A DNA stretch of 64,000 nucleotides from Nitrospinota bacterium. GTDB lineage: Bacteria > Nitrospinota_A > UBA7883 > JACRGQ01. This document shows positions 3,121 to 47,640 of this stretch, piece after piece; the stretch's first letter is position 1; every line of letters begins with the position of its first letter. The position numbers and the translations under genes were made by a program. Below the pieces are notes generated by a model, which was given only the letters and a program-made list of their open reading frames with translations, was not told where the DNA came from and did not search any database. The stretch spans positions 2,087 through 66,086 of the forward strand of contig JAOUMJ010000002.1 of NCBI GenBank assembly GCA_029881495.1, read 5' to 3'.

Positions 3121-3789
3121 ATGAAAAAGACAAAGAGGTTTGCGGTAATAGGTCTTGGGAAGTTCGGGTTTTATCTTGCGCGCAGTCTGTTCGAGCGCGG
3201 GCACGATGTGATCTCCATCGACATCGACAAGGATGTCGTACAGGAAATAAAAGACTATTCAACGCAGGCGATAATCGCTGATGCCACCAACAAGGATACG
3301 CTTCTCTCGCTGGGGATAAAGGATGTCGATATCGCGATCGTCAGCCTGGGAACAAGAATGGATCACTCCATCCTCGTCACCCTCCACCTGAAGGAGATAG
3401 GGTTGAATGAGATAGTCGTAAAGGCTATCACAGAGGATCACAGGAAGATACTCAGCATGATAGGCGCGACTGAAGTGATCTTTCCAGAGAGGGACATGGC
3501 CGAAAAGCTCGCTCACTCCCTTTCATCTCCGAACATAATGGATTTCCTCCCGCTTACGGAAGGGGTCTCCATAATGGAGGTGGTACCTTTGAAGTCGTTT
3601 GTCGGGAAGAGCATAAAGGATATTCAGTTGCGCAATAAATTCGGAGTTCAGGTAATAGCCGTAAAGGAGATAGTCCCTGAGAGAATGAATCTCATACCGG
3701 CCCCGGATACGATAGTGAAAGAGTCGGACGTCCTCGTGTTGATGGGACGTGATGAAGACCTGGCGAAACTGGAAGATCAAAGCGAGTAA
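3121..3789 (+). CDS. trkA: K+ uptake regulatory subunit TrkA/KtrA (RCK N+C domains)
   Basis: GLGKFG Rossmann motif; TrkA-N and TrkA-C domains. Starts 5 nt after the trkH stop. Confidence 0.88.
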   Translation: MKKTKRFAVIGLGKFGFYLARSLFERGHDVISIDIDKDVVQEIKDYSTQAIIADATNKDTLLSLGIKDVDIAIVSLGTRMDHSILVTLHLKEIGLNEIVVKAITEDHRKILSMIGATEVIFPERDMAEKLAHSLSSPNIMDFLPLTEGVSIMEVVPLKSFVGKSIKDIQLRNKFGVQVIAVKEIVPERMNLIPAPDTIVKESDVLVLMGRDEDLAKLEDQSE

Positions 3790-3859
3790 GTCATTCTCTT
3801 TTTCTGAGCCGGATGCGGACTCAAATAGACGGAAACGCAAACCTGAAAAGGAAGGGGCG

Positions 3860-4117
3860 CTATTTGAGGGTTATACCGGCCTGACGAATAACCTGTTTGG
3901 CGCTTATTTTCACGACTGCCATCTCGGAGAGGTTTGACATAAGCACCGAAAGGGTATTCATCGGATCGCCTTCAATCTCCTTTACGGTCATGTCGTCGTT
4001 GAGGATGACGCCTGATCTCTCAAAAATGGATCTGATCCTTTCATTTTCCGTGCTGACCCTCATGGCAGTTATGAGGATATCATTAAATATTCCTGCGGGA
4101 TTATCCATCATATGCAA
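3860..4117 (-). CDS. hypothetical small protein (85 aa) immediately downstream of the ODP-like gene
   Basis: Clean ORF with an 8-nt gap to the upstream gene on the same strand. No recognisable motif. Confidence 0.4.
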   Translation of the reverse strand: MHMMDNPAGIFNDILITAMRVSTENERIRSIFERSGVILNDDMTVKEIEGDPMNTLSVLMSNLSEMAVVKISAKQVIRQAGITLK

Positions 4118-4124
4118 TACATCC

Positions 4125-4913
4125 CTACTGAGAATGCTTCAGTTTTATGCCGTGTTTTGCCGCCAGCGCGTCGACTTCTCCTCCGACATGCAGTTCATGG
4201 GCGGCTTTGATATAGGCGGCGATTATACCCTTAGGGATGAGGCAGCCGTGTTGCGGGCAAATCAGCTCGATCCCGTAATGATCGTCCAGTTTTTCGATCC
4301 TCTTCAGCGCGTACTCAAGAGCCTTTTTCGATCCGAGGTACTGCCCGAGGAACGCCGAAAGCTGTGCCGGGTACTCTACCTCGACATAAAGGCTCGACTT
4401 CCCGGTGAATCCTCCAAACGCGTCAGATGAGAAGAGGCTTTTTGTTTTGAAATCGTAGGTGACCATTGAACCTACGAAGTGGCAATACGGCGTCATTATG
4501 AATTGAAGGGTGCGGTCGTTGCCGAATGTCAGTTCGTCGTCGTCGTCAAGAGGTACCATAGGGGAGGTGAAGCCGTAATGTTGCACAAGGACTTTCGCCT
4601 CCAGTGGAGCATAGACCTTGACGTCCGGATGAACCTCCTTTTCAATAAGCGGAATGGCGGCGCAGAGGTCTGGGTCCTGATGCTGGACGATGATATGCTT
4701 TATCTTCTTCATGTCGATAACCCCTCTGATCTTTTTCATCACGACATTAAAGAATTCAGGTTTGGCCGAGCCGGGGTCGATTACGACCGCTTCACCGCCG
4801 TCTACGATGAGATAAGGGATATTGTTGAAGCTGTTTGGAATGTCTTGAACTCCCAGGTGGTAGACACCTGGCGCGATCTCAATAGCATCACTGTCGTTGT
4901 AAGTATCTTTCAA
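4125..4913 (-). CDS. stand-alone flavodiiron-like metallo-beta-lactamase-fold protein (ODP-like, no flavodoxin domain)
   Basis: MBL fold with degenerate metal motif HQDPD, Gly-rich DPGS loop, 262 aa. Resembles the N-terminal domain of FprA/FDP. Located next to cheY/cheR. Confidence 0.6.
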   Translation of the reverse strand: MKDTYNDSDAIEIAPGVYHLGVQDIPNSFNNIPYLIVDGGEAVVIDPGSAKPEFFNVVMKKIRGVIDMKKIKHIIVQHQDPDLCAAIPLIEKEVHPDVKVYAPLEAKVLVQHYGFTSPMVPLDDDDELTFGNDRTLQFIMTPYCHFVGSMVTYDFKTKSLFSSDAFGGFTGKSSLYVEVEYPAQLSAFLGQYLGSKKALEYALKRIEKLDDHYGIELICPQHGCLIPKGIIAAYIKAAHELHVGGEVDALAAKHGIKLKHSQ

Positions 4914-5005
4914 TTTTGCATTGCTCCGGATTATTAGCTCAATTATTCAACAATCTGTGTCATTTTAACCTACTCATGCAGGATAATAAAACTAAATCGT
5001 GAAAT

Positions 5006-5392
5006 CTACAAAAAATTCGGGATGTTTTTCAATTCAGCAAAGAGCTCTGACGGTTTGAACGGTTTTTGGAGATAGGCGTTCGCGCCCAGGGATTTTGCCA
5101 AATTCCTGTCCTCCTCCATGGCATCGGTGGTGATCATGATCACCGGTATGTTCCTGAATTTCTCGTCGCCTTTTATGGTTTTCAGGAATTCCAGTCCATC
5201 CATGTTCGGCATATTAATGTCGCAGATTATAAGATCTATCTCGTTTTTAGCGAGCGCGTCGAGCGCTTCCAATCCGTCGGCGGCCTGAATATGGTTATCG
5301 AGGGAGGCCATCTTTTTCAAGGCGAATGTTACCATCGTTCTGAATGTCGAGGAATCATCCACTACCAATACAGTTTTAGAATTATTCGACAT
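5006..5392 (-). CDS. cheY: single-domain response regulator CheY
   Basis: VLVVDDS..ICDINMPNMDG..ITTD..GANAYLQKPF receiver signature. 128 aa. Confidence 0.85.
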   Translation of the reverse strand: MSNNSKTVLVVDDSSTFRTMVTFALKKMASLDNHIQAADGLEALDALAKNEIDLIICDINMPNMDGLEFLKTIKGDEKFRNIPVIMITTDAMEEDRNLAKSLGANAYLQKPFKPSELFAELKNIPNFL

Positions 5393-5417
5393 GGTTTTTT
5401 ATTCTATTATTGTTTGG

Positions 5418-6296
5418 CTATTTAGGCAAAGCATTCTTGCCTCCAGCGGAAATAAGAGGTTTTTGGTACATTATGACCTTGGACATCGGTTTCATGTCGA
5501 AAAGTGTTGTTATTTTGAACAAGGACTCAGTTTGTCCTATTAACAGGAATCCCCCAGGAGCCAGCGAATCATAGAAGTTCTTTACGATCTTGCTCTTCCC
5601 GTCAGAATCGAAGTAGATAAGGGCATTTCTGCAAAGTATAAGATCAATGTCCTTCACGAACGCCATCTGGCTACTGTTGAAGAAATTGATTCTTGAGAAT
5701 TTCACCATGTCGATAATTTTTTTATCCAGTTTGAAATACCTGCCGCTGTCATGGGAGAAATATTTTGTTCTTATGTTTGCATCAGTGGCCCTGAAATCAA
5801 ATTCGTTGTAGATGCCCTGTTTTGCTACGTTGAGGGCTTCGGTATTTATGTCGGATCCCAATATTTCTATTGTCCATTCTTTGGGACTAAAAAGTCCACT
5901 TTCCACGATGAGAATAGCCATCGTATACGGTTCGGCTCCGGTTGAACAGGCGGCGGACCATATGCGGATCTTTTTAATTCCGCTTTTTTGTTTGCTTTCC
6001 TTCAGCATCGGGAGGAAAGAATTTTTCAGCATTTCCATCTGCGGAGGTTCCCTGAAAAAGTATGTCTCGTTTACGGTGACAAGATTCAAAAGAAGTATGA
6101 TCTCCTCTTCCTTTTTGGAATCAAACCGGAGGAAATGGTAGTAGTCCTTGACGCTGCCGAGGCTGTTGGCTTCCACCCTCATGAGGATTCTTTTTTTGAA
6201 AAGATCTTCCTGGGCGCCTTTGAAGACAAGCCCTGAGTATTCCCGCAGGTAATCCTCAAACAGTTTCAGCTCCTCCGCGGAGATTGTTAGCGCCAT
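5418..6296 (-). CDS. cheR: chemotaxis protein methyltransferase CheR
   Basis: CheR N-terminal helical domain plus SAM-binding core (TVNETYFFRE, IWSAACSTGAEPYT, LAPGGFLLIG). Confidence 0.88.
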   Translation of the reverse strand: MALTISAEELKLFEDYLREYSGLVFKGAQEDLFKKRILMRVEANSLGSVKDYYHFLRFDSKKEEEIILLLNLVTVNETYFFREPPQMEMLKNSFLPMLKESKQKSGIKKIRIWSAACSTGAEPYTMAILIVESGLFSPKEWTIEILGSDINTEALNVAKQGIYNEFDFRATDANIRTKYFSHDSGRYFKLDKKIIDMVKFSRINFFNSSQMAFVKDIDLILCRNALIYFDSDGKSKIVKNFYDSLAPGGFLLIGQTESLFKITTLFDMKPMSKVIMYQKPLISAGGKNALPK

Positions 6297-6344
6297 ATTA
6301 GACTGTTATCCTTGTTTTTCGCGAAAGGCGTTTTCTTTCGGCTT

Positions 6345-6683
6345 CTATTTGCTAAAACTTTTTACGGCGTCGTCCCTGCCTGTAAAAACACCAAACTTCG
6401 ATAAAAGTCCGGTAACCTCGAAAGGGGTTTTAATATCGGGATTCAGGGAAGCAAGGGCGACATTGCCGCCATTGGCCTGAGAATTCCTGAGAATGCTTGC
6501 AAACGCACCGAGTCCGTAGCTCGAGATGAATTCAGTCAGTTTCATGTCTATAACTAATTTGTATCTTCCGTCTTTCATGAGTTTTTCCGCAAACTCCATG
6601 AATACTGGCGTCGAGTGCACATCCAATTTCCCGTCGATTTGAACTACTGTTATATCCCCGATATTTTCAGATTCAATGATCAC
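6345..6683 (-). CDS. STAS-domain anti-sigma-factor antagonist-like protein
   Basis: SpoIIAA-like length (112 aa) and pattern: VVQIDGKLDVHS..FISSYGLGAF. Confidence 0.75.
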   Translation of the reverse strand: MIIESENIGDITVVQIDGKLDVHSTPVFMEFAEKLMKDGRYKLVIDMKLTEFISSYGLGAFASILRNSQANGGNVALASLNPDIKTPFEVTGLLSKFGVFTGRDDAVKSFSK

Positions 6684-6704
6684 ATTACCTCCAATGGCAA
6701 AATA

Positions 6705-9119
6705 TTAGCTTGTAAGTTTCTTGATCCAGGGGTCATTTTCACCTTCAACCCCTTTTTGTAACAGGTCAATTATCTTGCTGTCGGCAGACGACGACAGGGC
6801 AAGCGCGGATATTCTTCTGATCGAAGGAGACGCGGCTTGGAGTCCCTTGAAAAGGAATTCTACGGATTCACTCTTTTCTATAAAAGCTGGGAGTGAATAG
6901 ACGAATTTCCGTATAGTGTGATTTGTAATCGCAGACGGGTCGAATACGATCCCATGTTTGTCCGTTATAGTATTTAACGCGGAGTACGCCTCAAACCTGT
7001 GTTTTTCAACACCGAGATACTCAAGGAGCATTTCCGCATGTTCGGCCCCTCCGATAACAGAGAGCGCCTTCATGGCTTTGTGCAAAAGAAGAATGTTCGA
7101 ATCGTCCCTTGGCAGGAGCTTTAAAAAGGTTTCCACCCGGGGTAGGGCGCTGTCGATTGTGTAGTCCGTTATATATCCGAGAACGGCAGATTGTATTATC
7201 CAGCTCTCCCTTTCGAGGCAGGGGAGGATGGATTCCGATTCCTTTTCACCGCCTAGCAGAGCAAGAGTTGAGACAGTTTCTGCAACTAATTCCGGTATTT
7301 CATCGTCAAGGATGTTCCTTAGCGCCGGTATTGCCTTTTCGTCGCCGCATTTACCAAGAGCTGTGATGGCAACTATTTTAGTTTCGGAATTCGTATCTGA
7401 GGTAAGCAGTTTCAAAAGAGGCTCGGAAGCTTCCGTCAGGCGGCGCTTCCCTATAGCCCTTACCACATAATTAAGGGTATCTGGTTTTACCTCGCCAAGC
7501 AGATTTACCAGGAGTTCATTTGCTGTCGGATGGACGATACTGCTTAAGGTCCATATCGACTGTACTCTAACCGAGAAATCATCATCGTTGAACAGCTTTG
7601 AAATGGATGTGAAAAGATCCTTTTCGGAAATGTTGTCTCTGTTCTTGTTTCCCTGGTATCCAAAGGAGTGTACGGCCGCGGCGCGGGCCTTTGGGGAGGG
7701 ATCAGAAAATCCATTGAGGAGAATAGGCGCCACGTCGCCCATTGATGAAAAGCCGAGAGCCCGGTACGCGCCCCATCGGATATTTTCATTGCCGGATCTG
7801 GTGAGAGCCTTGATTTTTTCCCTGTTGAATTTTTGCAGGAGAGACATCCCGCCTACGGCCGCTTTCCTTATGGACTCTTCGGGGGATGAAAGCATCGGTA
7901 CGATTTTGTCAAACTGCAGAGATGCCTGCATCATCCCGAGTGATTTGATCGTATCTGCAACGATATCGCTGTCGGGAGAGTCAAGGAAAGGAAGGAGTCT
8001 TTCAGAGTCGTCTTCCTTTCCGAGGAGGCCGATAATCCTTATAAGATTGCTCAATACCTGCTTTTTATCGGATTTCAATCCGGCAAAGATATTTGCCAAT
8101 ATGCCCGGGCCCTGCACTGTTATCAGTTCGCGAACTTCATTTTCAAAAGCGGGGTCCTCAAGTAGCGGGAGAAGATGCTCAACGGAGAATTTGCCTCTGA
8201 AATCCCAAAGTATGTTCAGGGCGGATTTGACTTCTTCCGTTTTTCCTCCAGAGAGCATCTCGATTATCGCGTCTATAATATGCGATGAATCGAGTTTTTT
8301 CAGTTCAAGGTTGGCTTTGTAATAATAAAATCCATGCCGGGTTATCTTCGCGAATTCCCTTTCCCTGTCCCTTATCATCGCCAGGGAGGTTATTCCAGCC
8401 TTTATAAGGTTTTTGTCATCGGTGCCTGAGATGACGTTTATTATCGGGAGGAGACCGCCAAGCTCTCCTATCATCCCGATGGCGGAAATTGCCGGGTAGC
8501 CGAGGATTGGATCATCAAGCATTTCAATCAGCGAAGGGAGCGCGCGCTCATCCCCGATCAATCCAAGCGCGGTTATATAGGGGAATTTGGACCAAGTTTC
8601 TTCCTTTACAACCGCTTCAAGTAGTGTGTCGACAGCCTCCGGGGACCCTATTCTTCCGAGCGCCTCGACGATGGCGTATCGGACGTTTTCATCCGGATCG
8701 TAAATCGAATTAAGAAGATAATTCAGAGCTTCCTTCTTCCCGAGGTTGCCGAGAGTATTAGCGCAGTAGATGCGGACATCGACAGTCGGATCGCTATTTA
8801 GTATTTCTCCAAGCGGCTGGGCAACATCTTCCCCCATCTCCTGAAGCACCGTCATGGCTGTATTTCTTACGGCTGCTCCCGGATCCCTCAAACAGTCAAT
8901 AAGAGGGGCGATACTCTCTTTTTCCTTTATTTTCACCAATGAAGTGGCGGCTGTATTTCGCACCTGCCAATGATCGTCCCCCAGAAGTGCAAGAAGGGGT
9001 TTTACGGCTGTACTCTCGCCGAATTCACCGAGCATCTCCGCGGCCTGTCTGCGAACGGAGAATTCCTCCGATTCCAACTGGCTGATAAAGAATTCAACTT
9101 CATTCATGGTATTAATCAT
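6705..9119 (-). CDS. large HEAT/PBS-lyase-repeat protein (804 aa)
   Basis: More than 15 repeats of the VR..AA.ALG.IG..A...L..LL.D type (PBS lyase HEAT-like) along the whole protein. Confidence 0.8.
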   Translation of the reverse strand: MINTMNEVEFFISQLESEEFSVRRQAAEMLGEFGESTAVKPLLALLGDDHWQVRNTAATSLVKIKEKESIAPLIDCLRDPGAAVRNTAMTVLQEMGEDVAQPLGEILNSDPTVDVRIYCANTLGNLGKKEALNYLLNSIYDPDENVRYAIVEALGRIGSPEAVDTLLEAVVKEETWSKFPYITALGLIGDERALPSLIEMLDDPILGYPAISAIGMIGELGGLLPIINVISGTDDKNLIKAGITSLAMIRDREREFAKITRHGFYYYKANLELKKLDSSHIIDAIIEMLSGGKTEEVKSALNILWDFRGKFSVEHLLPLLEDPAFENEVRELITVQGPGILANIFAGLKSDKKQVLSNLIRIIGLLGKEDDSERLLPFLDSPDSDIVADTIKSLGMMQASLQFDKIVPMLSSPEESIRKAAVGGMSLLQKFNREKIKALTRSGNENIRWGAYRALGFSSMGDVAPILLNGFSDPSPKARAAAVHSFGYQGNKNRDNISEKDLFTSISKLFNDDDFSVRVQSIWTLSSIVHPTANELLVNLLGEVKPDTLNYVVRAIGKRRLTEASEPLLKLLTSDTNSETKIVAITALGKCGDEKAIPALRNILDDEIPELVAETVSTLALLGGEKESESILPCLERESWIIQSAVLGYITDYTIDSALPRVETFLKLLPRDDSNILLLHKAMKALSVIGGAEHAEMLLEYLGVEKHRFEAYSALNTITDKHGIVFDPSAITNHTIRKFVYSLPAFIEKSESVEFLFKGLQAASPSIRRISALALSSSADSKIIDLLQKGVEGENDPWIKKLTS

Positions 9120-9154
9120 TTAATGCTAACATCATCTAATGATGCAGTTCATTC

Positions 9155-9514
9155 CTAATGTTTCATTTTTTTCAGGTATTCCGCAAGCACCTTCGGATCC
9201 ATTGGAGCCCCCGGCAATACGCTGCTCTTTTTACCCTGTTTGAGCCAGTTTTTAACAACACCGATGACAAGGTCGGGCGTTTCATCCGCCATGATTTTTA
9301 TCGTGAACATGTTTCTCGGAATTCCCTGGGGAATTATGACCTTTCCATCCGGCAGTATAGTGAGCTTTGGTATGTCCGATCTCCTTTTTAACTCTTTTTT
9401 CAGCTTCGGAACAGGCGGGAGGGATTCGACGGTCTTGACGGGCGGTTTTTGCGCGGGAGAGGATATATAGGCGATAAGGGCAATGACGAGCGAGGCCACA
9501 AGGACGAAGACCAA
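9155..9514 (-). CDS. hypothetical N-terminally membrane-anchored protein (119 aa)
   Basis: Single N-terminal TM (VFVLVASLVIALIAYI) followed by a Lys/Pro-rich segment. Tightly spaced between xerD and the HEAT gene. Confidence 0.5.
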   Translation of the reverse strand: MVFVLVASLVIALIAYISSPAQKPPVKTVESLPPVPKLKKELKRRSDIPKLTILPDGKVIIPQGIPRNMFTIKIMADETPDLVIGVVKNWLKQGKKSSVLPGAPMDPKVLAEYLKKMKH

Positions 9515-9534
9515 ACCGATTGCGATGTTGATAA

Positions 9535-10428
9535 CTACCCCCTTGGATGGGCTTTCGAATGTATTTTTGAAAGCCTTTCCCGGTTGATATGTGTATAGAT
9601 CTCCGTGGTCGTAAGCGTTGAATGTCCCAGCATGGACTGCACCGACCTAAGGTCGGCGCCTCTTTCCAGCAGATGAGTTGCAAAGGAATGGCGCAGTATG
9701 TGAGGCGATACGCCTCTCCTGATCTCTGCGGTAAGCGCATATTTTTTTAACATAAGCCAGAACGTCTGGCGCGTCATCGGTTTCCCAAGCCTCGAAAGGA
9801 AGAGGGCTTTAACGGGGCGTTTCCCCTTTTCGTATAGGGGCCTGCTTTCAAGCAGATACTTTTCCAGTTTTTCAATGCTTCTCTCGCCAATAGGGATAAG
9901 CCTCTCTTTAGAACCTTTGCCGGAAACCATTATATAGCCTGCCGACAGGTTCAGGTCGGAAGTATTTATCCCGACCAGTTCCGAAACCCGGATGCCTGTG
10001 GAGTAGATCAGCTCGAGCATGGCGGAATCCCTTATTCCTTCGGCTGTTGTTTCGTCGGGCTGCTCAAGCAACCTGTCGATCTCAGACAAGTTCAGAAATT
10101 TTGGGAGTCTTTTCGTGTTTACCGGGTGTTTCATGTTCCGGGTCGGGTCGTTCTCAAACCGGTTCCGGGCAACGCCATACCTGAAAAACATCCTGAGAGA
10201 GGAGAGTTTTCTTGAAATGGAGCGGGATGTGATGTTCTGTTTTCGCAGGAGGGTCATCCACGCTGTCACATCGTGCTGATCGATATTGCCGGAAACATCC
10301 TTTCCGGAGGTTTTCAGCGACTCGATAAAAGATTCCATATCCCGCCTGTACGCATCGACGGTATTTTCGGAAAGATTTCTTTCAACTGTAAGGTGTGTGA
10401 TCCATTCATCCAGAATGGGGAGCATCAA
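9535..10428 (-). CDS. xerD: tyrosine site-specific recombinase XerD/XerC family
   Basis: N-terminal SAM-like core-binding domain (LSENTVDAYRRDM). C-terminal catalytic R..HxxR..Y motifs (RHSFATHLLERGADLRSVQSMLGHSTLTTTEIYTHI). Confidence 0.88.
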   Translation of the reverse strand: MMLPILDEWITHLTVERNLSENTVDAYRRDMESFIESLKTSGKDVSGNIDQHDVTAWMTLLRKQNITSRSISRKLSSLRMFFRYGVARNRFENDPTRNMKHPVNTKRLPKFLNLSEIDRLLEQPDETTAEGIRDSAMLELIYSTGIRVSELVGINTSDLNLSAGYIMVSGKGSKERLIPIGERSIEKLEKYLLESRPLYEKGKRPVKALFLSRLGKPMTRQTFWLMLKKYALTAEIRRGVSPHILRHSFATHLLERGADLRSVQSMLGHSTLTTTEIYTHINRERLSKIHSKAHPRG

Positions 10429-11066
10429 GCGTATCCTTCCAGCTGCCGGAGAAACGGATTATGCTCCTTTTCTTCCCCAATGGTGGTGGTTTCACCATGT
10501 CCTGGGAACACGATCGTGTCATCCGGCAAAATGAAAAGTTTTTCCTTGATGGAAGCAAGAAGCTGCATGTGGTTCCCCCCGGTAAGGTCCGAGCGTCCGA
10601 TGGAGTTAAGAAACAGGGTATCTCCTGAAATCAGGAACCCATCACCATATATGCAAATCCCTCCAGGTGTATGACCGGGGGTATGTATTATTCTGATGCT
10701 GAAATCTTCGCACAGGTCGATTATTTCGCCGTCGGAAACGGTGGCGTCGTTTTTTGGGGCCTTCTTCACCCCCAGGTAGTCCGCGATATCCTGTTGTTCC
10801 TTGCTGGTCAGCATCCAGGCATCGTCCTCGTGGCAGAGGAAGGGTATGCTGAAGTGCCGAGCCACAGCTTCAACCCCGCCGGTGTGGTCGGAATGGCAGT
10901 GGGTATTGAGGACGAGCTTTGGGATCAGTTTCCTCTCTTCCATGAATTTGATGATCCTTGCCGCACTATCCCCAGGATCAATAACAATTGCCGACAGATG
11001 TTCATCGCAATAGAGAATGACGCAGTTCACGTCTATCGGACCGACGGTAATAACTTCAATTTTCAT
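10425..11066 (-). CDS. MBL-fold hydrolase, glyoxalase-II-like
   Basis: THCHSDHTGG metal motif. Start chosen at MKIEV with an AAGG RBS; the ORF track extends 14 codons further. Confidence 0.8.
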   Translation of the reverse strand: MKIEVITVGPIDVNCVILYCDEHLSAIVIDPGDSAARIIKFMEERKLIPKLVLNTHCHSDHTGGVEAVARHFSIPFLCHEDDAWMLTSKEQQDIADYLGVKKAPKNDATVSDGEIIDLCEDFSIRIIHTPGHTPGGICIYGDGFLISGDTLFLNSIGRSDLTGGNHMQLLASIKEKLFILPDDTIVFPGHGETTTIGEEKEHNPFLRQLEGYA

Positions 11067-11486
11067 AACCAGCCTTTTCTCTGAATAATTTCCGATATTG
11101 TACATCACTTGAATAGATTGAGCAGTTCCATTTATTAAATACTTTTACCTGAATTCAGTACAAGCGGACAAGCGGACAGGGTGATAAAATTTGGTGAGAG
11201 GGAAAGTATTTAGACCTGCCGGGGAGATGGAGGAGCAGGATATGTATGGCGGATCGCGATCTTCGGGTTTGTAACCCCGATATATCGCGTGCAGATGGTG
11301 CAAAATGGGCATTATGCCGAGTCATTTGCATCGCTTGTAGGCTCACGGTTGGAACAGATGGAAAAGAGCTGGAAAGATAAGTAAAATCCGGGCGTAAAAA
11401 ATCTGCTTTTTCCACTGGTTGCTTTAGGTTATTATATGTAAGTTAGAAAAAAGAACATTATCTTGAAATTTTAATAGGTGAGATTA

Positions 11487-12224
11487 ATGGGAAAAACTGC
11501 CTTAATAGTTGATGATGAGATGGAAGTGAGGCGTTGGGTCTCCAACCTGCTGACCACACAACTTGGCTTTGCAAAAACCATGGACGCTCCAAGCGGCGAA
11601 GCCGCGGTAGACCTTATAAAATCTGGCGAAAACTTTGACCTGATCTTCAGTTCGTGGGAGATGCCCAGGATGAAAGGGGATGAGCTCCTTGGCGAACTGA
11701 GGAAAATTCCTGAATCCCAGAATACGCCGTTCATCATGATGAGCTATAAAAAGGACAAGGATTCCCTTGTGAAAGCTATTCAGGCGGGAGTCAATAACTA
11801 CCTTGTAAAACCTCTCTCTGCCGGCATTTTCATGCAAAAGGTGAAAAAAACAATAAGCGACATGGAGAAGAAGGAGCTCGATTCCTTTAAAACAAAACGG
11901 AAGAATCCGGTTGATATTATTCTTGGCGATGATTTTTCCCATCCGGCCTCACTGCACAGCGTGACAAAATCAGGGTGTGTCGTTAGAGCGCCGTTGATAA
12001 AAGGGGGAGAAGTGGGGATTTACAGCCAGGTACATCTGGCAATATTCATGGATGGGATCCCTTTTAAGGTCCCTTCTGAGCTGGTAGCGCTGGAGGCGGA
12101 CAGGGTGGATTCATCAACAAGGCATTTTATAATGGTCACATTCAAATTTGGCGAACACGACCTGAAAATAGACGGAAAGATCGACAGGCTGATAAACAGC
12201 TTTTCTGCGGCAAATCAAAAATAA
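11487..12224 (+). CDS. response regulator with C-terminal PilZ-like domain (REC-PilZ)
   Basis: Receiver motifs LIVDDE..DLIFSSWEMPRMKG..MMSYK..NNYLVKP. C-terminal about 100 aa beta-rich domain consistent with PilZ. AGGTGA RBS 6 nt upstream of the ATG at 11487. Confidence 0.7.
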   Translation: MGKTALIVDDEMEVRRWVSNLLTTQLGFAKTMDAPSGEAAVDLIKSGENFDLIFSSWEMPRMKGDELLGELRKIPESQNTPFIMMSYKKDKDSLVKAIQAGVNNYLVKPLSAGIFMQKVKKTISDMEKKELDSFKTKRKNPVDIILGDDFSHPASLHSVTKSGCVVRAPLIKGGEVGIYSQVHLAIFMDGIPFKVPSELVALEADRVDSSTRHFIMVTFKFGEHDLKIDGKIDRLINSFSAANQK

Positions 12225-23225: not shown

Positions 23226-26200
23226 ATGATAGTTTCCTGCCCAAACTGCGAAAGCAGGTACGATATCGAGCCTGGCGGAATTCCGCAAGGGGGGACATAC
23301 GCGCATTGCACCAATTGCGAAAACATTTTCTTCCTGAAAAAACGTAAAAAGGGTGAAAAACCTCGCGCCGCCGCCGTCGGAGCCGGCTCCGCATTGTCGG
23401 AAAGGGATACCGGCGAGATGAGGATTGCTGAAGATAACGGATTTAATCCAGATACCGACTCATTCCCGACCGGAGAAGAGGAGACGGCGCAGGAGCCGGA
23501 ATCGCTCTTTGATGAGATGTTGAATGAAGGTTTCGACGAAGGCCAGCCTCCGGGCGAACCTATGGAGGAGACATTCGCAAGTCAACAGAACGGTGTTCAG
23601 ACATTTTCAATCGAGGATGAGAACGGAGGTGTTGAAGAGAGCATCGCCGACGCGGTAGAAGAGGATATTGACGAGTTTTCTGACGGCACATCCGAGGTGT
23701 TGGAGCTTGAAGCGCCAAATCTCCTGATGGATGAATCTCTAGCAGAGATTGAAGAGGCCGATTTCGAGAGGGATTCTGAGGACCATATTCTTAATTTCGA
23801 AGATGAGGAAAGCGATGAGCCCCAGACGGTAGAAAATGAGATCAGCGACATTCTTCAGTCGGCAGGTCTGTTCGGCAATGGTGAGGCCGAGCCTATCAAG
23901 GCGGAGAGAGGGTTTTCCAGCATGGAAGAGGCGGGCGGGAGCGAATCCGAAGCGGATATCTTTGATGAAGTTAAATCCGAGATGGATATGTTTGAAGAGG
24001 TGAAATCTGAAATCGAAAAAACCGCGCCCCCCGAGACAATGACTGCCGACCTGGCGGAAGAGAGCGAGGTAGGGAGGATATTTGATGACATAAAGAGCGG
24101 AGCCGTTTCAGACGACAGCGGATCTCCTTCAAGCGAAACCGAATTCCAGGACGAAATAGACAAGCTGTTTGCGATGGCGGATGGGGAGGGAGACGCGTCA
24201 ACGCAGGCAGTCGGAAGAGGGGTGATCGATTCAATACTGGATGATTCCAGTTTTGATACAGAGGAGCATGAAGGGGACGCAATCAACGGCAATGGCGGGT
24301 ACAACAATCCGTTTGAAGAGTCGCTCCTTGGAACAGATTCCGATCCGGTGCATGACGAGGTTGATGATATCTTTTCAAGCGGGGGATTGTTCGATGATGA
24401 ATCTACAGGAGCGAATGCAAAGGAGCGGGGGCTCAAGGAGGGGACAGCGTCAGTACCAATGTCCGTGCAGGATGAGATAGATGAGCTTTTTGAACGTAAC
24501 CAGGAAAAGGGACAGACCTACATCATGCCTGAAAGCGCGGTTGAGGATGTGCTTGCACAGGCGGATCAAAGTTCCAAATCCGGCTTTGACGATGTCGACA
24601 TCGACGCTATATTTGCCGAATCGAGCCAGCAGGAGTTTTCACATGGCACAGAGCCGACTGATACGGAGATAGTAAATCTGGAATATACGCCCTTGCCTGG
24701 AGAGTCCTCCCCAATGGATGAATTTGCTGGCGAGGATATTGAATCCCTCTTTTCGGAAGAAAGCGAAGTTCCAGGCAAAAAAGACTCATTGGCGGAAGTT
24801 GATTCAGAAAAAACGGAATATGGCGGAGGTGGCGTGGAGCTCTCCCTGCAGGATGAAATAAACTCTATCTTGTCAGATTCATCTTCGGATTCGGATTCGC
24901 CGCTTGAATCGCCCGAGGCGCTTAGCGAACTGGATACGATAATATTTGAAAGTACAAAGAGAGGTGATTCTGCAAAAGGGCAGTCTGATGTTGATTCACT
25001 TTTCGATGTGTCAAAAGAGAATGACAAGCCCGAGCCAGCGCCAGCAGAGTTACCCACATCTTCCGGTTCCGGCGCTCAATTCAACATAGACGCCATATTT
25101 GCCGAGGCGGCCGGCGGCGGGTCTACAGGCTCGGCAGAGCCGGAGGCTTCAAAAGGTGTTTCATCAGGCGAAGAGATAGACATAGACGCGATATTTGCCG
25201 AGGTTAAAGGTGGCGGGTCTACAGGCTCGGCAGAGCCGGAGGCTTCAAAAGGTGTTTCATCAGGCGAAGAGATAGACATAGACGCAATATTTGCCGAGGT
25301 TAAAGGTGGCGGGTCTACAGTCTCGGCAGAGCCTGAGGCATCAAAAGACGTTTCGTCAGACGAAGAGATAGACATAGACGCAATATTTGCCGAGGTTAAA
25401 GGTGGCGGGTCTACAGTCTCGGCAGAGCCTGAGGCATCAAAAGATGTTTCATCAGATGAAGAGATAGATATAGACGCAATATTTGCCGAGGTTAAAGGTG
25501 GCGGGTCGACAGGCTCGGCAGAGCCTGAGGCATCAAAAGACGTTTCGTCAGATGAAGAGATAGACATAGACGCGATATTTGCCGAGGCTCAAGGCGGCGG
25601 GTCTACAGTCTCGGCAGAGCCGGAGGCTTCAAAAGATGTTTCGTCAGACGAAGAGATAGACATAGACGCGATATTTGCCGAGGCTCAAGGCGGCGGGTCG
25701 ACAGGCTCGGCAGAGCCGGAGGCTTCAAAAGATGTTTCGTCAGACGAAGAGATAGACATAGACGCGATATTTGCCGAGGCGACAGAAGGTATAGACGCAG
25801 AGCTGACAGATTCAGATACTTCCTCCAGCGTAGATCAAGGGGGACAGGCTGATATTGATGCCTTCTTTGCCGAGACAACCGGTGAAAAGAATGTAATTCC
25901 TGTTGTTGCGGATAAGGAAATTGACGTTAACCTGGGGGGACAGAACGATATAGACGCTATGTTTGCCGAGGCGGCAGGGGGGGAGACCGCTACGGTATCT
26001 GAGGCCCCTTCCGGCGACGACCTCGGCGGTCAGGATGATATTGATTCGATGTTTGCCGAAGCGGCAGGCGGGGAAACTGCTACGGTATCTGAGGCCCCTT
26101 CCGGCGACGACCTCGGCGGTCAGGATGATATTGATTCGATGTTTGCCGAGATGACAGACGGGGAACCCCCCGCGGTATCTGAGGCCCCTTCCGGCGACGA

Positions 26201-27995
26201 CCTCGGCGGTCAGGATGATATTGATTCGATGTTTGCCGAGATGACAGACGGGGAAACCCCCGCGGTATCTGAGGCCCCTTCCGGCGACGACCTCGGCGGT
26301 CAGGATGATATTGATTCGATGTTTGCCGAGATGACAGACGGGGAACCCCCCGCGGTATCCGAGACCACATCAAGCGACGACCTTGGTGGAGATAACGATA
26401 TAGACGCTATGTTTGCCGAGGCGGCAGGGGGGGAGACCGCTACGGTATCCGAGACCCCATCAAGCGACGACCTCGGCGGAGATAACAATTTAGATTCATT
26501 ATTTGGCGAATCAGCCGATAACACGGAGAAGGGGGAATTGGCCTCTGGAGGTGACTCTATGAATGAAGGTATTGATGTTTCATCTGACGATGATTTGGAC
26601 GCTCTTTTCGATGGAGATGCCTCGGAACCTACAGATATTTCCACTCCTGCAGAGCCGAGTTCCGCAGAGGGGACATCAAAGCAGGAAGAGGATGGGGCTG
26701 TAATAAGTCAGGATGATCTGGACGCCTTGTTTTCAGAAGAGGGTGGAGGGGACCCTGGTTCCATGGCAACTGCAGATAGTGCCGCTGATGGAGGGGAAAC
26801 TGACAGCTCCGAAGTAGATTTCGGGATATCCGGCGATAAGGATCTTGATTCGCTGTTCGATGCTGAAGCCGAGACGGCAATAATAGGAGACGAGCCTTCC
26901 TTTGACGCCACCCCTGCTGAAAGCGCGGGCGGAAGCAGCGAAGGGGGGATTGACACTTCAATGCTTGAGAGCGTTTCGGAATCGAATGAGCCTGATCATG
27001 AACTTGAGGAGACAAGCGTAGTCGAAACCCAGAGCGTGGATGGTGAGCAGAAAGTAGGAAAACTCGCCAAAGCAGTGCTGGGGGAGGAGGACGAGTTGGA
27101 TTTTGACGAGCCGGCAGAAAAGAAAAAATTTGGCCTCATAGGGAAATTGGCAAAAGTTGCCATGGCTGCCATGCTCCTTGTAGCAGTCGGGCTTGGAACA
27201 GTAACCTACACAAAAAACCAGAATCCGCTGGCGGTAATTGAGCAGGTAAAATCAAAAGGCTTCGGAGGCCTGGGGATAGGTATGTCTGAGATCCTTTCGT
27301 TCAAAGGTTCCGCCGATGTCGAAGAGATGGAGAAAAAGAGAGAAGAGGGGAAGGAAAGCGCTTCTTCAAAAGTGGATGAATCGAAATCAGACGATCAGGT
27401 CGCTGAAGGTACCGGAGAAGCTGCAGGTGATGGAGGCGGCGACACAAGTGGGGATGGCACAAGTGTTGTGGAACAGAAAGAGTTGACCGGCGTGGTACCT
27501 GTACCTGAAAGAGGTGGAACGGTGGTAGCCGACAAGACTCCGTCGCCGGAATCGTCTCTGCCGCCTTTGGAAGAGGACGCGATAGAGACAGCCGCATTGG
27601 AGCCCGCTCCGGTAAAAGCGGCCGTAACAAAAGCGATACCACCCCCGGGCGAGCGCGGAGAGGAATTTCAGTCGGAAGTCTATGAGAGAAACACGGAGCT
27701 GAAGATAGGGGTAATCGTTCCGGTAGACTTCAACGCCGAAGCCGTGAAGGTTATGACTGCTGATGTTCTGATCACGTTCCAGAACACGTCTGAATACGAT
27801 ATGGCCGACACGAAAAGATATCTGTACGAGATGGCGGTAGAAGAAGAGATCGAGAAATTTTTCCTTGATAAGTTTTATGAAGATACTCTGTATGTTCAGG
27901 ACAAAATCATTGCCCAGCTTAATACTAAATTTAAAAAACGGCCCGAGATGGGGAAAATTGCCGAAATAGATATCGAAAACTTCAAGCTGAAATGA
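23226..27995 (+). CDS. giant (1589 aa) hyper-acidic protein with an N-terminal MJ0042-type zinc ribbon, a roughly 1250-aa repeat-rich acidic linker, one TM helix and a DUF3426-like C-terminal domain
   Basis: N-terminus MIVSCPNCESRYDIEPGGIPQGGTYAHCTNCENIFFLKK (CxxC...CxxC). TM KKKFGLIGKLAKVAMAAMLLVAVGLGTVTY near aa 1300. About 230-aa beta-rich C-terminal domain. Single uninterrupted ORF. Confidence 0.8.
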   Translation: MIVSCPNCESRYDIEPGGIPQGGTYAHCTNCENIFFLKKRKKGEKPRAAAVGAGSALSERDTGEMRIAEDNGFNPDTDSFPTGEEETAQEPESLFDEMLNEGFDEGQPPGEPMEETFASQQNGVQTFSIEDENGGVEESIADAVEEDIDEFSDGTSEVLELEAPNLLMDESLAEIEEADFERDSEDHILNFEDEESDEPQTVENEISDILQSAGLFGNGEAEPIKAERGFSSMEEAGGSESEADIFDEVKSEMDMFEEVKSEIEKTAPPETMTADLAEESEVGRIFDDIKSGAVSDDSGSPSSETEFQDEIDKLFAMADGEGDASTQAVGRGVIDSILDDSSFDTEEHEGDAINGNGGYNNPFEESLLGTDSDPVHDEVDDIFSSGGLFDDESTGANAKERGLKEGTASVPMSVQDEIDELFERNQEKGQTYIMPESAVEDVLAQADQSSKSGFDDVDIDAIFAESSQQEFSHGTEPTDTEIVNLEYTPLPGESSPMDEFAGEDIESLFSEESEVPGKKDSLAEVDSEKTEYGGGGVELSLQDEINSILSDSSSDSDSPLESPEALSELDTIIFESTKRGDSAKGQSDVDSLFDVSKENDKPEPAPAELPTSSGSGAQFNIDAIFAEAAGGGSTGSAEPEASKGVSSGEEIDIDAIFAEVKGGGSTGSAEPEASKGVSSGEEIDIDAIFAEVKGGGSTVSAEPEASKDVSSDEEIDIDAIFAEVKGGGSTVSAEPEASKDVSSDEEIDIDAIFAEVKGGGSTGSAEPEASKDVSSDEEIDIDAIFAEAQGGGSTVSAEPEASKDVSSDEEIDIDAIFAEAQGGGSTGSAEPEASKDVSSDEEIDIDAIFAEATEGIDAELTDSDTSSSVDQGGQADIDAFFAETTGEKNVIPVVADKEIDVNLGGQNDIDAMFAEAAGGETATVSEAPSGDDLGGQDDIDSMFAEAAGGETATVSEAPSGDDLGGQDDIDSMFAEMTDGEPPAVSEAPSGDDLGGQDDIDSMFAEMTDGETPAVSEAPSGDDLGGQDDIDSMFAEMTDGEPPAVSETTSSDDLGGDNDIDAMFAEAAGGETATVSETPSSDDLGGDNNLDSLFGESADNTEKGELASGGDSMNEGIDVSSDDDLDALFDGDASEPTDISTPAEPSSAEGTSKQEEDGAVISQDDLDALFSEEGGGDPGSMATADSAADGGETDSSEVDFGISGDKDLDSLFDAEAETAIIGDEPSFDATPAESAGGSSEGGIDTSMLESVSESNEPDHELEETSVVETQSVDGEQKVGKLAKAVLGEEDELDFDEPAEKKKFGLIGKLAKVAMAAMLLVAVGLGTVTYTKNQNPLAVIEQVKSKGFGGLGIGMSEILSFKGSADVEEMEKKREEGKESASSKVDESKSDDQVAEGTGEAAGDGGGDTSGDGTSVVEQKELTGVVPVPERGGTVVADKTPSPESSLPPLEEDAIETAALEPAPVKAAVTKAIPPPGERGEEFQSEVYERNTELKIGVIVPVDFNAEAVKVMTADVLITFQNTSEYDMADTKRYLYEMAVEEEIEKFFLDKFYEDTLYVQDKIIAQLNTKFKKRPEMGKIAEIDIENFKLK
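25084..25780 (+). repeat. coding tandem array A: 96-bp unit x about 7.25, encoding DIDAIFAEVKGGGSTGSAEPEASKGVSSGEEI
   Basis: Unit boundaries at 25084, 25180, 25276 and so on up to 25757. Copies differ by a few synonymous or conservative substitutions. Confidence 0.9.
25935..26500 (+). repeat. coding tandem array B: 90-bp unit x about 6.3, encoding GGQDDIDSMFAE(A/M)(A/T)(G/D)GE(T/P)(A/P)xVSEAPSGDDL
   Basis: Read directly in the sequence. Distinct from array A but carrying the same DIDxMFAE core. Confidence 0.9.
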
Positions 27996-28097: not shown

Positions 28098-28760
28098 ATG
28101 GCAAAAATATTGATCGTTGATGACGACCCGAATATAGCCCTTCTCCTTGAGATGACGCTTCAGAAAAAAGCCGAGTATTCCATCGAAAAGGTGACAGACG
28201 GGCAGAAGGCGCTTGAGCGTATAAATGAAACGAAGCCGGATCTTATCCTTCTTGACATCATGATGCCGGGAATTGACGGGTATGAAGTATGCCGAAGGCT
28301 GAAGATGTCAAACGATACCAAGTATATCTCGGTCATTATCCTTTCGGCGAAGAGGGATATCCAGGACAAGATCAAGGGTATGGATATCGGGGCGGACGAC
28401 TATATTGTCAAGCCTTTCAATCCCGACGAGCTTCTTACACGGGTTCAGGTGCAGTTGCGGATTCGAAAGCTGGAATCGGAAATAGTGGATAAAAAGCAGC
28501 TTGAAACGGTCCTTGCGATGTCCGTTACCCTTCAGCATGAGATCAACAATCCCCTGGCAGGGATACTGGGGAACGCTGATCTTTTAAAGGAGTGGAAGAA
28601 TCTCAGCGACGAAGAGGTGGACGAATCGATCCAGGCGATCGTGAAACAGTCTGCAAGAATAAGGGACATCGTACATAAGATGTCCACGGCGACAAAGGTG
28701 GTTGAATCCACCTATCTCGGCGATACCAAGATGATAGATATTACAAGGCTTAATCCGTAG
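28098..28760 (+). CDS. response regulator receiver fused to a HisKA dimerisation/phosphoacceptor domain, with no HATPase domain
   Basis: REC motifs ILIVDDD..ILLDIMMPGIDG..ILSAK..DDYIVKPF. H-box SVTLQHEINNPLAGILGNADLL. The protein ends about 60 aa later with no ATP-binding N/G boxes. Confidence 0.75.
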   Translation: MAKILIVDDDPNIALLLEMTLQKKAEYSIEKVTDGQKALERINETKPDLILLDIMMPGIDGYEVCRRLKMSNDTKYISVIILSAKRDIQDKIKGMDIGADDYIVKPFNPDELLTRVQVQLRIRKLESEIVDKKQLETVLAMSVTLQHEINNPLAGILGNADLLKEWKNLSDEEVDESIQAIVKQSARIRDIVHKMSTATKVVESTYLGDTKMIDITRLNP

Positions 28761-41436: not shown

Positions 41437-43077
41437 ATGGTGAATCCTTTGTTTGGCATTGGGACAGACAATGCAGAGAAGCGTTTCGAAAAAATGTTCG
41501 GCCTTGTTAAAGATATTGGCGCGCTGAATCATGTCAGAAACAGGGATCTGCGTCATGTCATGCAGGAAGCCGCCAGGCTATTTGTAGAAAATGGCATAGC
41601 TGAATTTTGCTCCATTCTTTTCTGTCCCTCCCCTGTATCCTGTTTCAACCGCGTATTTGCCGTGAGGGATCGCAACGGCGGGGTTACCACGGAAATTTTC
41701 ACAGACCGCATCTCGGTTGAAGATTCCCCTTTCCTGCTGAAAATGATGGAGGATGGGGTCCCGGTGTTTATCGATTCGATCGGTGATATTGAGCGGGAAG
41801 CCAGGATCAACATGATCGTGCCGGAAGGTTACAACTCCCTCTTTAGCATACCGGTCACATCCAATTCTGATACGTTCCTGTCTCTTACTTTCGGATATTC
41901 CGAAAAAAGATCAAAACCTGAAGAAAGCGAGATGGATTTCCTTGTTCATCTGGCACACCAGATCTCTGATATCCAGGCGATACAGTATTCGGACGAGCTT
42001 TTCCAAAACTATGAAATGGAATACCGTGAGCTTTTTGAAAATTCGGCTGACGTTGTCATCAAGATTAACGCTCAAGGGGAGATCGAGGATATAAACTCGC
42101 AGTTTACCGCGGAGACTGGTCTGGACGCCGGGGACTGGATAGGAAAACCGATATCGTCACTTTTCACCGGCGTTGAAAACGCCGGGTATGAGATATTCAG
42201 GAAAAATATGGACCGCTTTTCCGGCCTTGAATGCGTGTTGAACGGCAACAGAGAACAGAAATTTTATCTCCTCTCTTCGTGGCCAAGATTCAACAGCGAG
42301 GGGAAAATGATCGGAAACTGGATAGCGGCACGTGATCTGACCGAGAGGAAAAAAAAGGAGATGGATCTCCTCAGGCTGAAAGAAAAGGCGGAGGCGGCCA
42401 ACTTCTCAAAACTCTCTCTGCTGAATAACGTCTCGCACGAATTGAAAACCCCTCTGACTTCAATCATCGGTTTTGGCAAGCTGATTTCATGCAATGAAAA
42501 GATCGATACGAAGGTGAGAGAGCAGGCCGCGATAGTCGAGAAGGAGGGGAAGGATCTCCTGACCATCATTAACAGTCTGCTGGATGTGGCAAGCGCTGAA
42601 AAGGAGTGGGGAGAATTAAAACACACAAGGATACAGCTGGGAAAATTCCTTAAATTCATTGCCAACGGCGGCAAACGTGGAGTGCTTGAAATTTCCATTG
42701 ATAATGATCTGCCTGAAACGATCATTGCTGACGAGAAAAAACTAATGATCGTGCTGGATCAGCTTGTGGATAATGCTTTCAAATTCTCGATGGGGAAGAA
42801 GGTATCGCTAACCGCCAGGAAATCGGAAGGCGACATTGTCTTTTCAGTAAAGGATGACGGCGTAGGGATAGAAGAGAAAAACCTGGAACGCGTTTTCGAA
42901 CATTTCGTGCAGGAAGACAGCGGATTATCACGGGAGTTTGAAGGGATGGGCCTCGGCCTTCCGCTTGCCAAGACGGCGGTACTGGCGATGGGTGGGAGGA
43001 TTTGGGTCGACAGCATTAAAGGGGAGGGGAGCACCTTCCATTTTGCCATTCCGTTTGTTACGGCAACTGCCGAATAG
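41437..43077 (+). CDS. cytoplasmic sensor histidine kinase (GAF-like plus PAS plus HisKA plus HATPase)
   Basis: H-box LNNVSHELKTPLTSIIGF. N box (DNAFKFS), G1 (KDDGVGI) and G2 (GMGLGL) boxes. No TM segments or REC domain. Confidence 0.85.
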   Translation: MVNPLFGIGTDNAEKRFEKMFGLVKDIGALNHVRNRDLRHVMQEAARLFVENGIAEFCSILFCPSPVSCFNRVFAVRDRNGGVTTEIFTDRISVEDSPFLLKMMEDGVPVFIDSIGDIEREARINMIVPEGYNSLFSIPVTSNSDTFLSLTFGYSEKRSKPEESEMDFLVHLAHQISDIQAIQYSDELFQNYEMEYRELFENSADVVIKINAQGEIEDINSQFTAETGLDAGDWIGKPISSLFTGVENAGYEIFRKNMDRFSGLECVLNGNREQKFYLLSSWPRFNSEGKMIGNWIAARDLTERKKKEMDLLRLKEKAEAANFSKLSLLNNVSHELKTPLTSIIGFGKLISCNEKIDTKVREQAAIVEKEGKDLLTIINSLLDVASAEKEWGELKHTRIQLGKFLKFIANGGKRGVLEISIDNDLPETIIADEKKLMIVLDQLVDNAFKFSMGKKVSLTARKSEGDIVFSVKDDGVGIEEKNLERVFEHFVQEDSGLSREFEGMGLGLPLAKTAVLAMGGRIWVDSIKGEGSTFHFAIPFVTATAE

Positions 43078-47179: not shown

Positions 47180-47549
47180 GGAGGCGGACGGATGGTCGCC
47201 TTGCCGCTTTACCGCGGTGGGGAGGAAAGTCCGGACACCGCAGAGCAGGGCACTTCCTAACAGGAAGCGGGAGCGATCCCAGGGAAAGTACCACAGAAAA
47301 TATACCGCCCGCCTATGGCGGGTAAGGGTGAAATGGCGAGGTAAGAGCTCACCGGGTCTGCGGCGACGCAGGCCGCATGGCAAACCCTGCCCGGTGCAAG
47401 GCCAAATAGGGGAGCGCGCCCCGCAAGGGGCAGGAGGCGGCTCGCCTTCGGCTCCCGGGTAGGCCGCACGACGTTGCCGGCAACGGCAATGCTAGAGGAA
47501 TGACCGTCGCCCCGAAAGGGGTACAGAATCCGGCTTACAGTCCGCCTCC
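47180..47549 (+). ncRNA. rnpB: RNase P RNA (bacterial type A)
   Basis: P1 helix ggaggcggac...gtccgcctcc. Conserved blocks GGAGGAAAGTCCGGAC, ACAGAAAATATACCGCC, GGTAAGGGTGAAATGGCGAGGTAAGAGCTCACC, GCAAGGCCAAATAGGGG, CCGGGTAGG and ACAGAATCCGGCTTA, all in canonical order. Confidence 0.92.
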
Positions 47550-47640
47550 ATTTATTGCTAAACGGATGAGGTTGCATTCAGAGACAGATACAGTGAAATG
47601 ATATTTCCCGCGCCGGGGCAGGGGGCGGTTCGGCAGAGGA

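Follow-up and report, generated by a model that had tools for sequence, protein, structure and literature searches.

Chemosensory pathways with outputs other than motility are poorly understood, and to our knowledge Cpc7 of Myxococcus is the only HEAT-repeat component of such pathways that has been studied. The M. xanthus Che7 cluster reportedly has the gene order cheY-cheA-cheW-mcp-cpc-cheR-cheB. Cpc7 is a HEAT-repeat protein and the binding target of CheY7 (Darnell et al. 2014, J Bacteriol 196:3160, as cited in the review PMC11514114). Fusions of the methyltransferase CheR to a TPR domain, such as WspC and FrzF, are typical of alternative cellular function (ACF) clusters (PMC3447774). Treponema denticola's oxygen-binding diiron protein (ODP) is coupled to the receptor TDE2496 (PMC7666581), and ancestral stage-1 F7 clusters of gamma-proteobacteria contain anti-sigma-factor antagonists and a serine phosphatase (PMC7184735). 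Here these systems are compared with a six-gene block from a Nitrospinota bacterium, which encodes a HEAT-repeat protein, a STAS protein, CheR, CheY, an ODP and a conserved 83 aa protein; the block lies in a 64,000-nucleotide stretch of contig JAOUMJ010000002.1, referred to as the window. It is predicted to be a co-directional, tightly spaced accessory sub-operon of a pathway based on methyl-accepting chemotaxis proteins (MCPs) and CheA, with the kinase core encoded elsewhere in the genome; a probability of roughly 0.55 is given to this reading. The pathway served by the block is most likely non-flagellar and "alternative cellular function"-like.

The block consists of the following genes:

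6705..9119, minus strand: HEAT-repeat solenoid protein, labeled Cpc7-like, 804 aa, Pfam HEAT_2
6345..6683, minus strand: single-domain STAS protein of the anti-sigma-factor-antagonist type, 112 aa, PF01740 and TIGR00377
5418..6296, minus strand: CheR-type protein-glutamate O-methyltransferase, 292 aa, CheR_N and CheR
5006..5392, minus strand: single-domain CheY-like response regulator, 128 aa, PF00072
4125..4913, minus strand: ODP with the metallo-beta-lactamase/flavodiiron-core fold and without a flavodoxin domain, 262 aa, PF19583
3860..4111, minus strand: ODP-linked conserved protein, 83 aa, beginning 13 nt after ODP

The genes from HEAT to CheY are separated by gaps of 21, 48 and 25 nt, and the same six genes were called independently on two other assemblies of this locus. 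An original prediction made from the sequence had placed five minus-strand genes here (HEAT, STAS, CheR, CheY and ODP), with gaps of 21-48 nt among the first four; Pfam and NCBIfam confirm the positions, and the gaps are as it gave them. It set ODP about 300 bp beyond cheY, for which the measured gap is 92 nt, and it overlooked both the 83 aa gene and CheB as a usual member of the block in relatives. Its view of the region as a chemosensory-like module is upheld, as the genes are of chemosensory type and are kept as a unit in relatives.

Full-length orthologues of the HEAT protein (approximately 800 aa, 38-70% identity) occur only in metagenome-assembled genomes (MAGs) of the Nitrospinota type. 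A scan of one genome per GTDB species, which used a pattern from the Nitrospinota-only HEAT alignment, gave seven loci; six are titled Nitrospinota or Nitrospinales, and one belongs to an unclassified "bacterium" MAG. The order and orientation of the block are kept in all seven while the flanking genes differ completely, and for this reason the block is regarded as a unit; the lack of conservation in relatives that would have spoken against the original prediction is not observed. The arrangements among the loci (numbered L001 onward) are:

Window, L001, L002 and L014: HEAT-STAS-CheR-CheY-ODP-small gene
L003, L012 and L013: HEAT-STAS-CheR-CheB-CheY-ODP-small gene
L007: HEAT-STAS-CheR-CheB-CheY-ODP-small gene, followed directly by a HAMP-MCP gene
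L004/L010: HEAT-STAS-CheR-CheB-CheY
L015: HEAT-STAS-CheR-CheY

HEAT identity to the window protein is 70% in L014 and 46% in L015. CheB lies between CheR and CheY in most relatives and is missing in the sublineage of the window, where the cheR-cheY spacer measures 25-41 nt. ODP and the small gene are an optional appendage of the block: ODP is found in the blocks of L003, L007, L012, L013 and L014 and is missing in L004/L010 and L015.

The HEAT protein contains six HEAT_2 stretches (E=4e-84, Pfam), and its AlphaFold2 model, made from a 50-sequence alignment, is an uninterrupted solenoid of about 49 helices with no other domain (pLDDT 94.6, pTM 0.88). The top PDB matches of this model in Foldseek are CAND1, SF3B1, karyopherins and PP2A-A; all are generic solenoid binding scaffolds without catalytic domains. 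Residues outside the repeat pattern that are invariant in the alignment of both HEAT clades are W51, R54, R85, N86, W176, E579 and W640. The protein is 100% identical along its length to an annotated protein, shorter by 4 residues, of a "Nitrospinota bacterium" MAG, and database annotation of the family reads merely "HEAT repeat domain-containing protein". The pairing of one alpha-solenoid with one CheR in non-flagellar chemosensory clusters is shared with the CheR-TPR fusions, and it points to a scaffold that tethers or regulates the methyltransferase; in contrast to those fusions, the repeats here are of the HEAT type, and instead of a C-terminal TPR extension there is a separate polypeptide of approximately 800 aa, whose gene lies upstream of cheR.

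The STAS protein matches PF01740 (E=9e-18, 64.4 bits against a cut-off of 22.6 in Pfam) and also passes the anti-sigma-antagonist threshold of TIGR00377 (68.4 bits against 53.45). It aligns to the structures of RsbV and SpoIIAA with the phospho-serine position kept (SSYGLG, compared to DSTGLG of RsbV 6m36), and the SSYGLG motif is invariant in the aligned Nitrospinota STAS orthologues; the gene itself is confined to the Nitrospinota version of the block. The genes inspected, which were those of the window and of the flanks of L003, L004, L007, L014 and L015, include neither an RsbW/SpoIIAB-type kinase nor a PP2C phosphatase. A STAS-type antagonist that shares a cluster with cheR and cheY is reminiscent of the stage-1 F7 clusters; however, F7 features cheA, two cheW genes, aer2/mcpA-type receptors, cheD, cheB and the serine phosphatase, with no HEAT gene, and none of those genes is present here. 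As the window has only STAS, cheR and cheY of the F7 set, it does not contain a stage-1 F7 cluster.

CheR of the block contains both expected domains above their Pfam cut-offs (CheR_N PF03705, E=1.2e-7; CheR PF01739, E=2.9e-52) and aligns end to end with the solved CheR proteins 5ftw, 5xly and 1af7; its top solved relatives are CheR of B. subtilis (5ftw, E=2.6e-32), CheR1 of P. aeruginosa and CheR of Salmonella. It is 47-59% identical to the HEAT-linked CheRs of relatives (47% for L005) and 34% identical to that of the Acidobacteriota locus L047. CheY matches PF00072 (E=9e-29, Pfam), and its top NCBIfam match is CheY PRK10610 with 95 bits, which is under the equivalog cut-off of 189; the signature residues D12, D13, D58, T88 and K110 are all present and are kept in orthologues. 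In the complete HEAT-containing clusters described below the leading gene is a cheY, and its product shares 42% identity with CheY of the block. For CheR and CheY of the block alike, the HEAT-linked counterparts in other phyla are nearer relatives than the other CheR and receiver genes of the window.

ODP is assigned by PF19583 (E=2.7e-50, 171.4 bits against a cut-off of 27.2), and its top PDB matches are the solved ODPs 6qrq (E=1.2e-19) and 6qnm. It had been described from the sequence as a protein of the metallo-beta-lactamase fold that resembles diiron ODPs and has a degenerate metal site; the family profile makes it a true ODP, and the second part of the description does not hold, as the alignment to the diiron ODP 6qrq shows every ligand motif (HQDPD, the internal H, the bridging D and PQHG) to be the same in both proteins. 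As in Treponema denticola and Thermotoga maritima (6qnm, 6qrq), it is a stand-alone diiron ODP with identical ligand motifs that is encoded with chemotaxis genes, and in L007 an MCP gene follows. The differences from those systems are that the window has no adjoining receptor gene (among the relatives only L007 has an MCP adjoining ODP) and that the conserved 83 aa protein follows ODP. We know of no description of such a follower in the Treponema or Thermotoga systems.

The 83 aa gene follows ODP in every ODP-containing relative (L003, L007, L012, L013 and L014) and also in L097, and its product carries an invariant C-terminal NLSEMAVVKISAKQVIR motif. The family is rare; a word-based homologue search gave only 4 clusters and a profile search gave 27 representatives at E<=1e-3 among 1.84 billion proteins. 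The contigs of two distant members are too short to say much, although ODP is seen upstream in L097. The AlphaFold2 model is confident (pLDDT 94.3) and has the order helix-helix-strand-strand-helix-helix; no PDB fold was matched in Foldseek with E<1, and no match was found in Pfam, NCBIfam or PADLOC. Based on its constant position, the 83 aa protein is a candidate partner of ODP.

These data bear on whether the block functions as a unit. It could be what is left of a once complete Che cluster in decay, or its genes could have come together by chance, in either case without any joint function: CheA, CheW and MCP are missing, as is CheB in the sublineage and ODP in some relatives. The reading frames, however, are all intact; alignments establish that the genes are co-conserved and that CheR, CheY, STAS and ODP keep their predicted catalytic, phospho-acceptor and metal residues; and order and spacing persist even where HEAT identity has fallen to 38-46% and nothing in the flanks is shared. 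Decay or chance is considered very improbable.

Distant relatives of the HEAT protein have 24-29% identity, still align full length, and reside in chemosensory clusters beside cheR. The arrangements found are:

L005: HEAT-CheR-CheB-CheY, with no STAS
Acidobacteriota-type loci (phmmer map): CheY-CheA-CheW-MCP-HEAT-CheR-CheB
L047 (Pfam): CheY-CheA-CheW-(binding protein)-MCP-HEAT-CheR-CheB-(DUF4388 and receiver)-GAF
Nitrospirota locus: MCP-MCP-CheW-HEAT-CheR-CheB, with CheA nearby
Thermoanaerobaculia locus: CheY-CheA-AAA-CheW-receiver-HEAT-CheR

A scan of JGI metagenomes with the Acidobacteriota-type HEAT clade gave 156 loci, of which 80 were kept; the source names of this clade are Vicinamibacteria and Blastocatellia, and the G+C content is approximately 70% in the three loci checked. 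CheR/CheB adjoin HEAT in 57 of the 61 Acidobacteriota-type loci with enough downstream sequence, an MCP ends beside HEAT in 28 of 37, and CheA is present in all 18 of these (soil) loci that extend at least 6.5 kb upstream. The HEAT-cheR spacing is often 0-4 nt in the wider family, and HEAT is found directly upstream of cheR in at least five lineages, in most of them within complete Che clusters. Judged by gene neighborhood, the HEAT-cheR pair is the invariant element, which makes the HEAT family a regular accessory of complete MCP/CheA systems.

The relatives in Acidobacteriota, Nitrospirota and Thermoanaerobaculia have HEAT between mcp and cheR together with cheA, cheW, cheB and cheY, whereas the window has HEAT-(STAS)-CheR-CheY only. 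The likeness to Che7 is that a HEAT protein is encoded with CheR and a single-domain CheY, and the order in the Acidobacteriota relatives matches the order that Che7 is said to have; unlike Che7, the window lacks CheA, CheW, MCP, CheB and the desaturase gene, has STAS inserted and has the ODP pair appended. No Myxococcus-named protein is among the top HEAT-family hits, and the likeness to Cpc7 rests on its description and on gene order. In L047 (14342-16054, plus strand), and likewise in L028 and L064, proteins with DUF4388(PATAN)-receiver and GAF domains close the cluster after CheB; this ending suggests a non-flagellar, possibly pilus- or development-type output.

Database entries also include fusions (P0199, P0207 and P0212) that join HEAT-CheR (as in P0199), MCPsignal-HEAT or HEAT-CheR-CheB-receiver-DUF4388; these may be assembly artefacts and are not used as evidence. 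A HEAT-CheR_N fusion in L006 (P0031, 7989-12004) was likewise set aside; CheR is fragmented there, so a frameshift in the assembly is the probable cause. Any genuine case among the HEAT fusions would count as direct evidence that HEAT is in physical complex with CheR or with an MCP.

The constancy of the HEAT-cheR pair also permits a different explanation, in which the block is a self-contained circuit that needs neither CheA nor MCP. CheR (with CheB where present) would reversibly methylate HEAT or STAS, with the level of methylation set by ODP and the 83 aa protein in response to oxygen or iron; the methylated scaffold would then release or capture STAS and give a partner-switching output, for example through a sigma factor. 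The Nitrospinota blocks are indeed kept without adjoining CheA, CheW or MCP, HEAT directly precedes cheR (in Nitrospinota with STAS between them), and the phospho-serine of STAS is conserved. On the other hand, the HEAT-CheR pair of other phyla stands beside canonical MCP and CheA genes, and the L007 block has an MCP of its own; the HEAT family has only scattered, non-conserved matches to the MCP-type methylation site [ASTG]xx[EQ][EQ]xx[ASTG]; CheY requires a kinase; and no anti-sigma kinase or PP2C was seen in the window or the flanks inspected. Such a circuit is considered quite improbable; if true, it would provide both the first substrate other than an MCP for the chemotaxis adaptation enzymes and the first case in which these enzymes are used without a kinase.

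A complete chemosensory pathway, whether of an F, ACF or Tfp class, is taken here to comprise CheA, CheW and at least one MCP. The window was searched by phmmer with CheA, CheW and MCP seeds from related loci, and its larger open reading frames (ORFs) were scanned with Pfam; none of the three was found in the 64 kb, which bears out the original prediction on this point, and because they were tested for and not found, the window is not a complete chemosensory system. The remaining genes of the window are housekeeping genes, except for a second CheR, a histidine kinase and two receiver proteins:

41437..43077: GAF-PAS histidine kinase
28098..28760, plus strand: protein with a receiver and a HisKA dimerisation/phospho-acceptor domain and no HATPase domain, 220 aa
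31280..32113, minus strand: second stand-alone CheR, 277 aa, CheR_N and CheR
11478..12224, plus strand: protein with a receiver at its N-terminus and, in its C-terminal half (about 120 aa), no Pfam match, 248 aa

The receiver-HisKA protein may act as an intermediate in phosphotransfer, or it may be a hybrid kinase that has been truncated. The second CheR, which is only 31% identical to CheR of the block, is flanked by a GatA-like amidase and GreA, and the genes around it include no further che gene; the presence of this orphan implies methyl-accepting substrates elsewhere in the genome. The gene at 11478-12224 is divergent from the gene string that ends in the block and occupies the same place in L001, L002 and L015; the C-terminal half of its product looks PilZ-like by eye.

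These genes are relevant to another explanation, that of two-component rewiring, in which an ordinary sensor histidine kinase would phosphorylate the receiver of the block, which would then bind HEAT or STAS and in this way govern some downstream process, while CheR would methylate the receptors of another pathway. CheA is not nearby, sensor kinases and orphan receivers are abundant (the GAF-PAS and receiver-HisKA proteins in the window, and histidine kinase and receiver genes beside the block in L004 and L015), and the window holds the second, orphan CheR. This explanation is considered doubtful, as the receiver is most CheY-like by NCBIfam and has its 42% identity to the CheY that precedes CheA in complete HEAT clusters, and no kinase is conserved beside the block across relatives.

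In the preferred reading, that of an accessory sub-operon of an MCP/CheA pathway, ODP, probably with the 83 aa protein as its partner, would sense oxygen and/or Fe(II) and act on a chemoreceptor, by analogy to T. denticola. CheR would methylate that ODP-linked receptor, and the HEAT solenoid would be a scaffold on which CheR docks and is kept where it acts, in the manner of the TPR domain in the CheR-TPR fusions; HEAT may also be the target of phosphorylated CheY, as Cpc7 is for CheY7. CheY is hypothesized to be phosphorylated in trans by a CheA encoded elsewhere. STAS would be an adaptor specific to the lineage and probably regulated by phosphorylation; it would couple the block to a partner-switching kinase/phosphatase pair, also encoded elsewhere. 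CheB appears to have been lost cleanly in the sublineage of the window; because of this loss, demethylation would be either absent or supplied in trans.

Several points weigh against the preferred reading. That the CheA/CheW/receptor core is encoded elsewhere in the genome is an assumption, as only the 64-kb window of this genome was inspected; not only does the core not appear here, it is not found within 8-10 kb of any Nitrospinota locus, save for the MCP of L007. No kinase or phosphatase for STAS is located near the block, and an adaptation branch that has lost CheB but still has CheR is unusual. In favor of a core elsewhere, the Nitrospina/Nitromaritima core genome encodes genes for chemotaxis and flagella (PMC5029188); against it, that report of chemotaxis genes concerns marine Nitrospina, to which the block-carrying MAGs do not belong.

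A gene of 119 aa with a hydrophobic N-terminus lies 35 nt upstream of HEAT, and its membership in the module is uncertain:

9155..9514, minus strand: 119 aa protein with zero family matches in Pfam, NCBIfam and PADLOC

Only the closest relatives (L001, L002 and L014) have it in this place; L015 and L004 have other small unannotated ORFs there (homology not established). A promoter and terminator scan of 3500-11600 found 13 elements compared to 9.6 and 9.8 in shuffles and is uninformative on operon structure, and the Rfam and tRNA scans found nothing in the block region. PADLOC gives only partial, generic HEAT-repeat matches for the HEAT protein and none for STAS, CheR, ODP or the 83 aa protein; because of this, no defence system is assigned to the block. 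Two further features of the window are:

23226..27995, plus strand: large ORF of 1589 aa, whose sole match is an N-terminal zinc-ribbon
47180..47553, plus strand: RNase P RNA, bacterial class A, 317.6 bits, the only Rfam match in the window

GC skew (+0.19) and AT skew (+0.16) both reach their peak for the window in the stretch that holds the large ORF; the RNase P RNA is an ordinary housekeeping gene.

Each part of the block is precedented: Che7 pairs HEAT with CheY, the CheR-TPR fusions pair a solenoid with CheR, STAS occurs in stage-1 F7 clusters, and ODP takes part in the chemotaxis of spirochaetes and Thermotoga. The claim of the original prediction that the combination is not a described pathway is therefore only partly sustained; the HEAT family is a regular member of complete CheA-CheW-MCP-HEAT-CheR-CheB clusters, a HEAT protein is the CheY7 target in Che7 and STAS occurs in F7, and what appears to stand is the insertion of STAS between HEAT and CheR, with neither CheA nor CheW nearby. 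Three features appear to be undescribed in the literature searched: the linkage of HEAT and cheR across phyla; the Nitrospinota layout, in which STAS is inserted, no kinase core adjoins, ODP is added and one sublineage has lost CheB; and the ODP-linked 83 aa family.

An approximately 800 aa HEAT family, whose gene is found directly upstream of cheR almost without exception and across three phyla or more, represents an uncharacterised but testable partner in chemosensory pathways. The Nitrospinota version, which combines HEAT, STAS, CheR, CheY and in some lineages CheB with an oxygen/iron sensor, offers a compact soluble set for the study of HEAT-CheR, HEAT-CheY and HEAT-STAS contacts. The 83 aa protein, whose family is rare and whose confident model has no relative among known folds, may be a missing link between ODP and its receptor, and the block as a whole would bear on redox sensing by an oxygen-sensitive chemolithotroph lineage.

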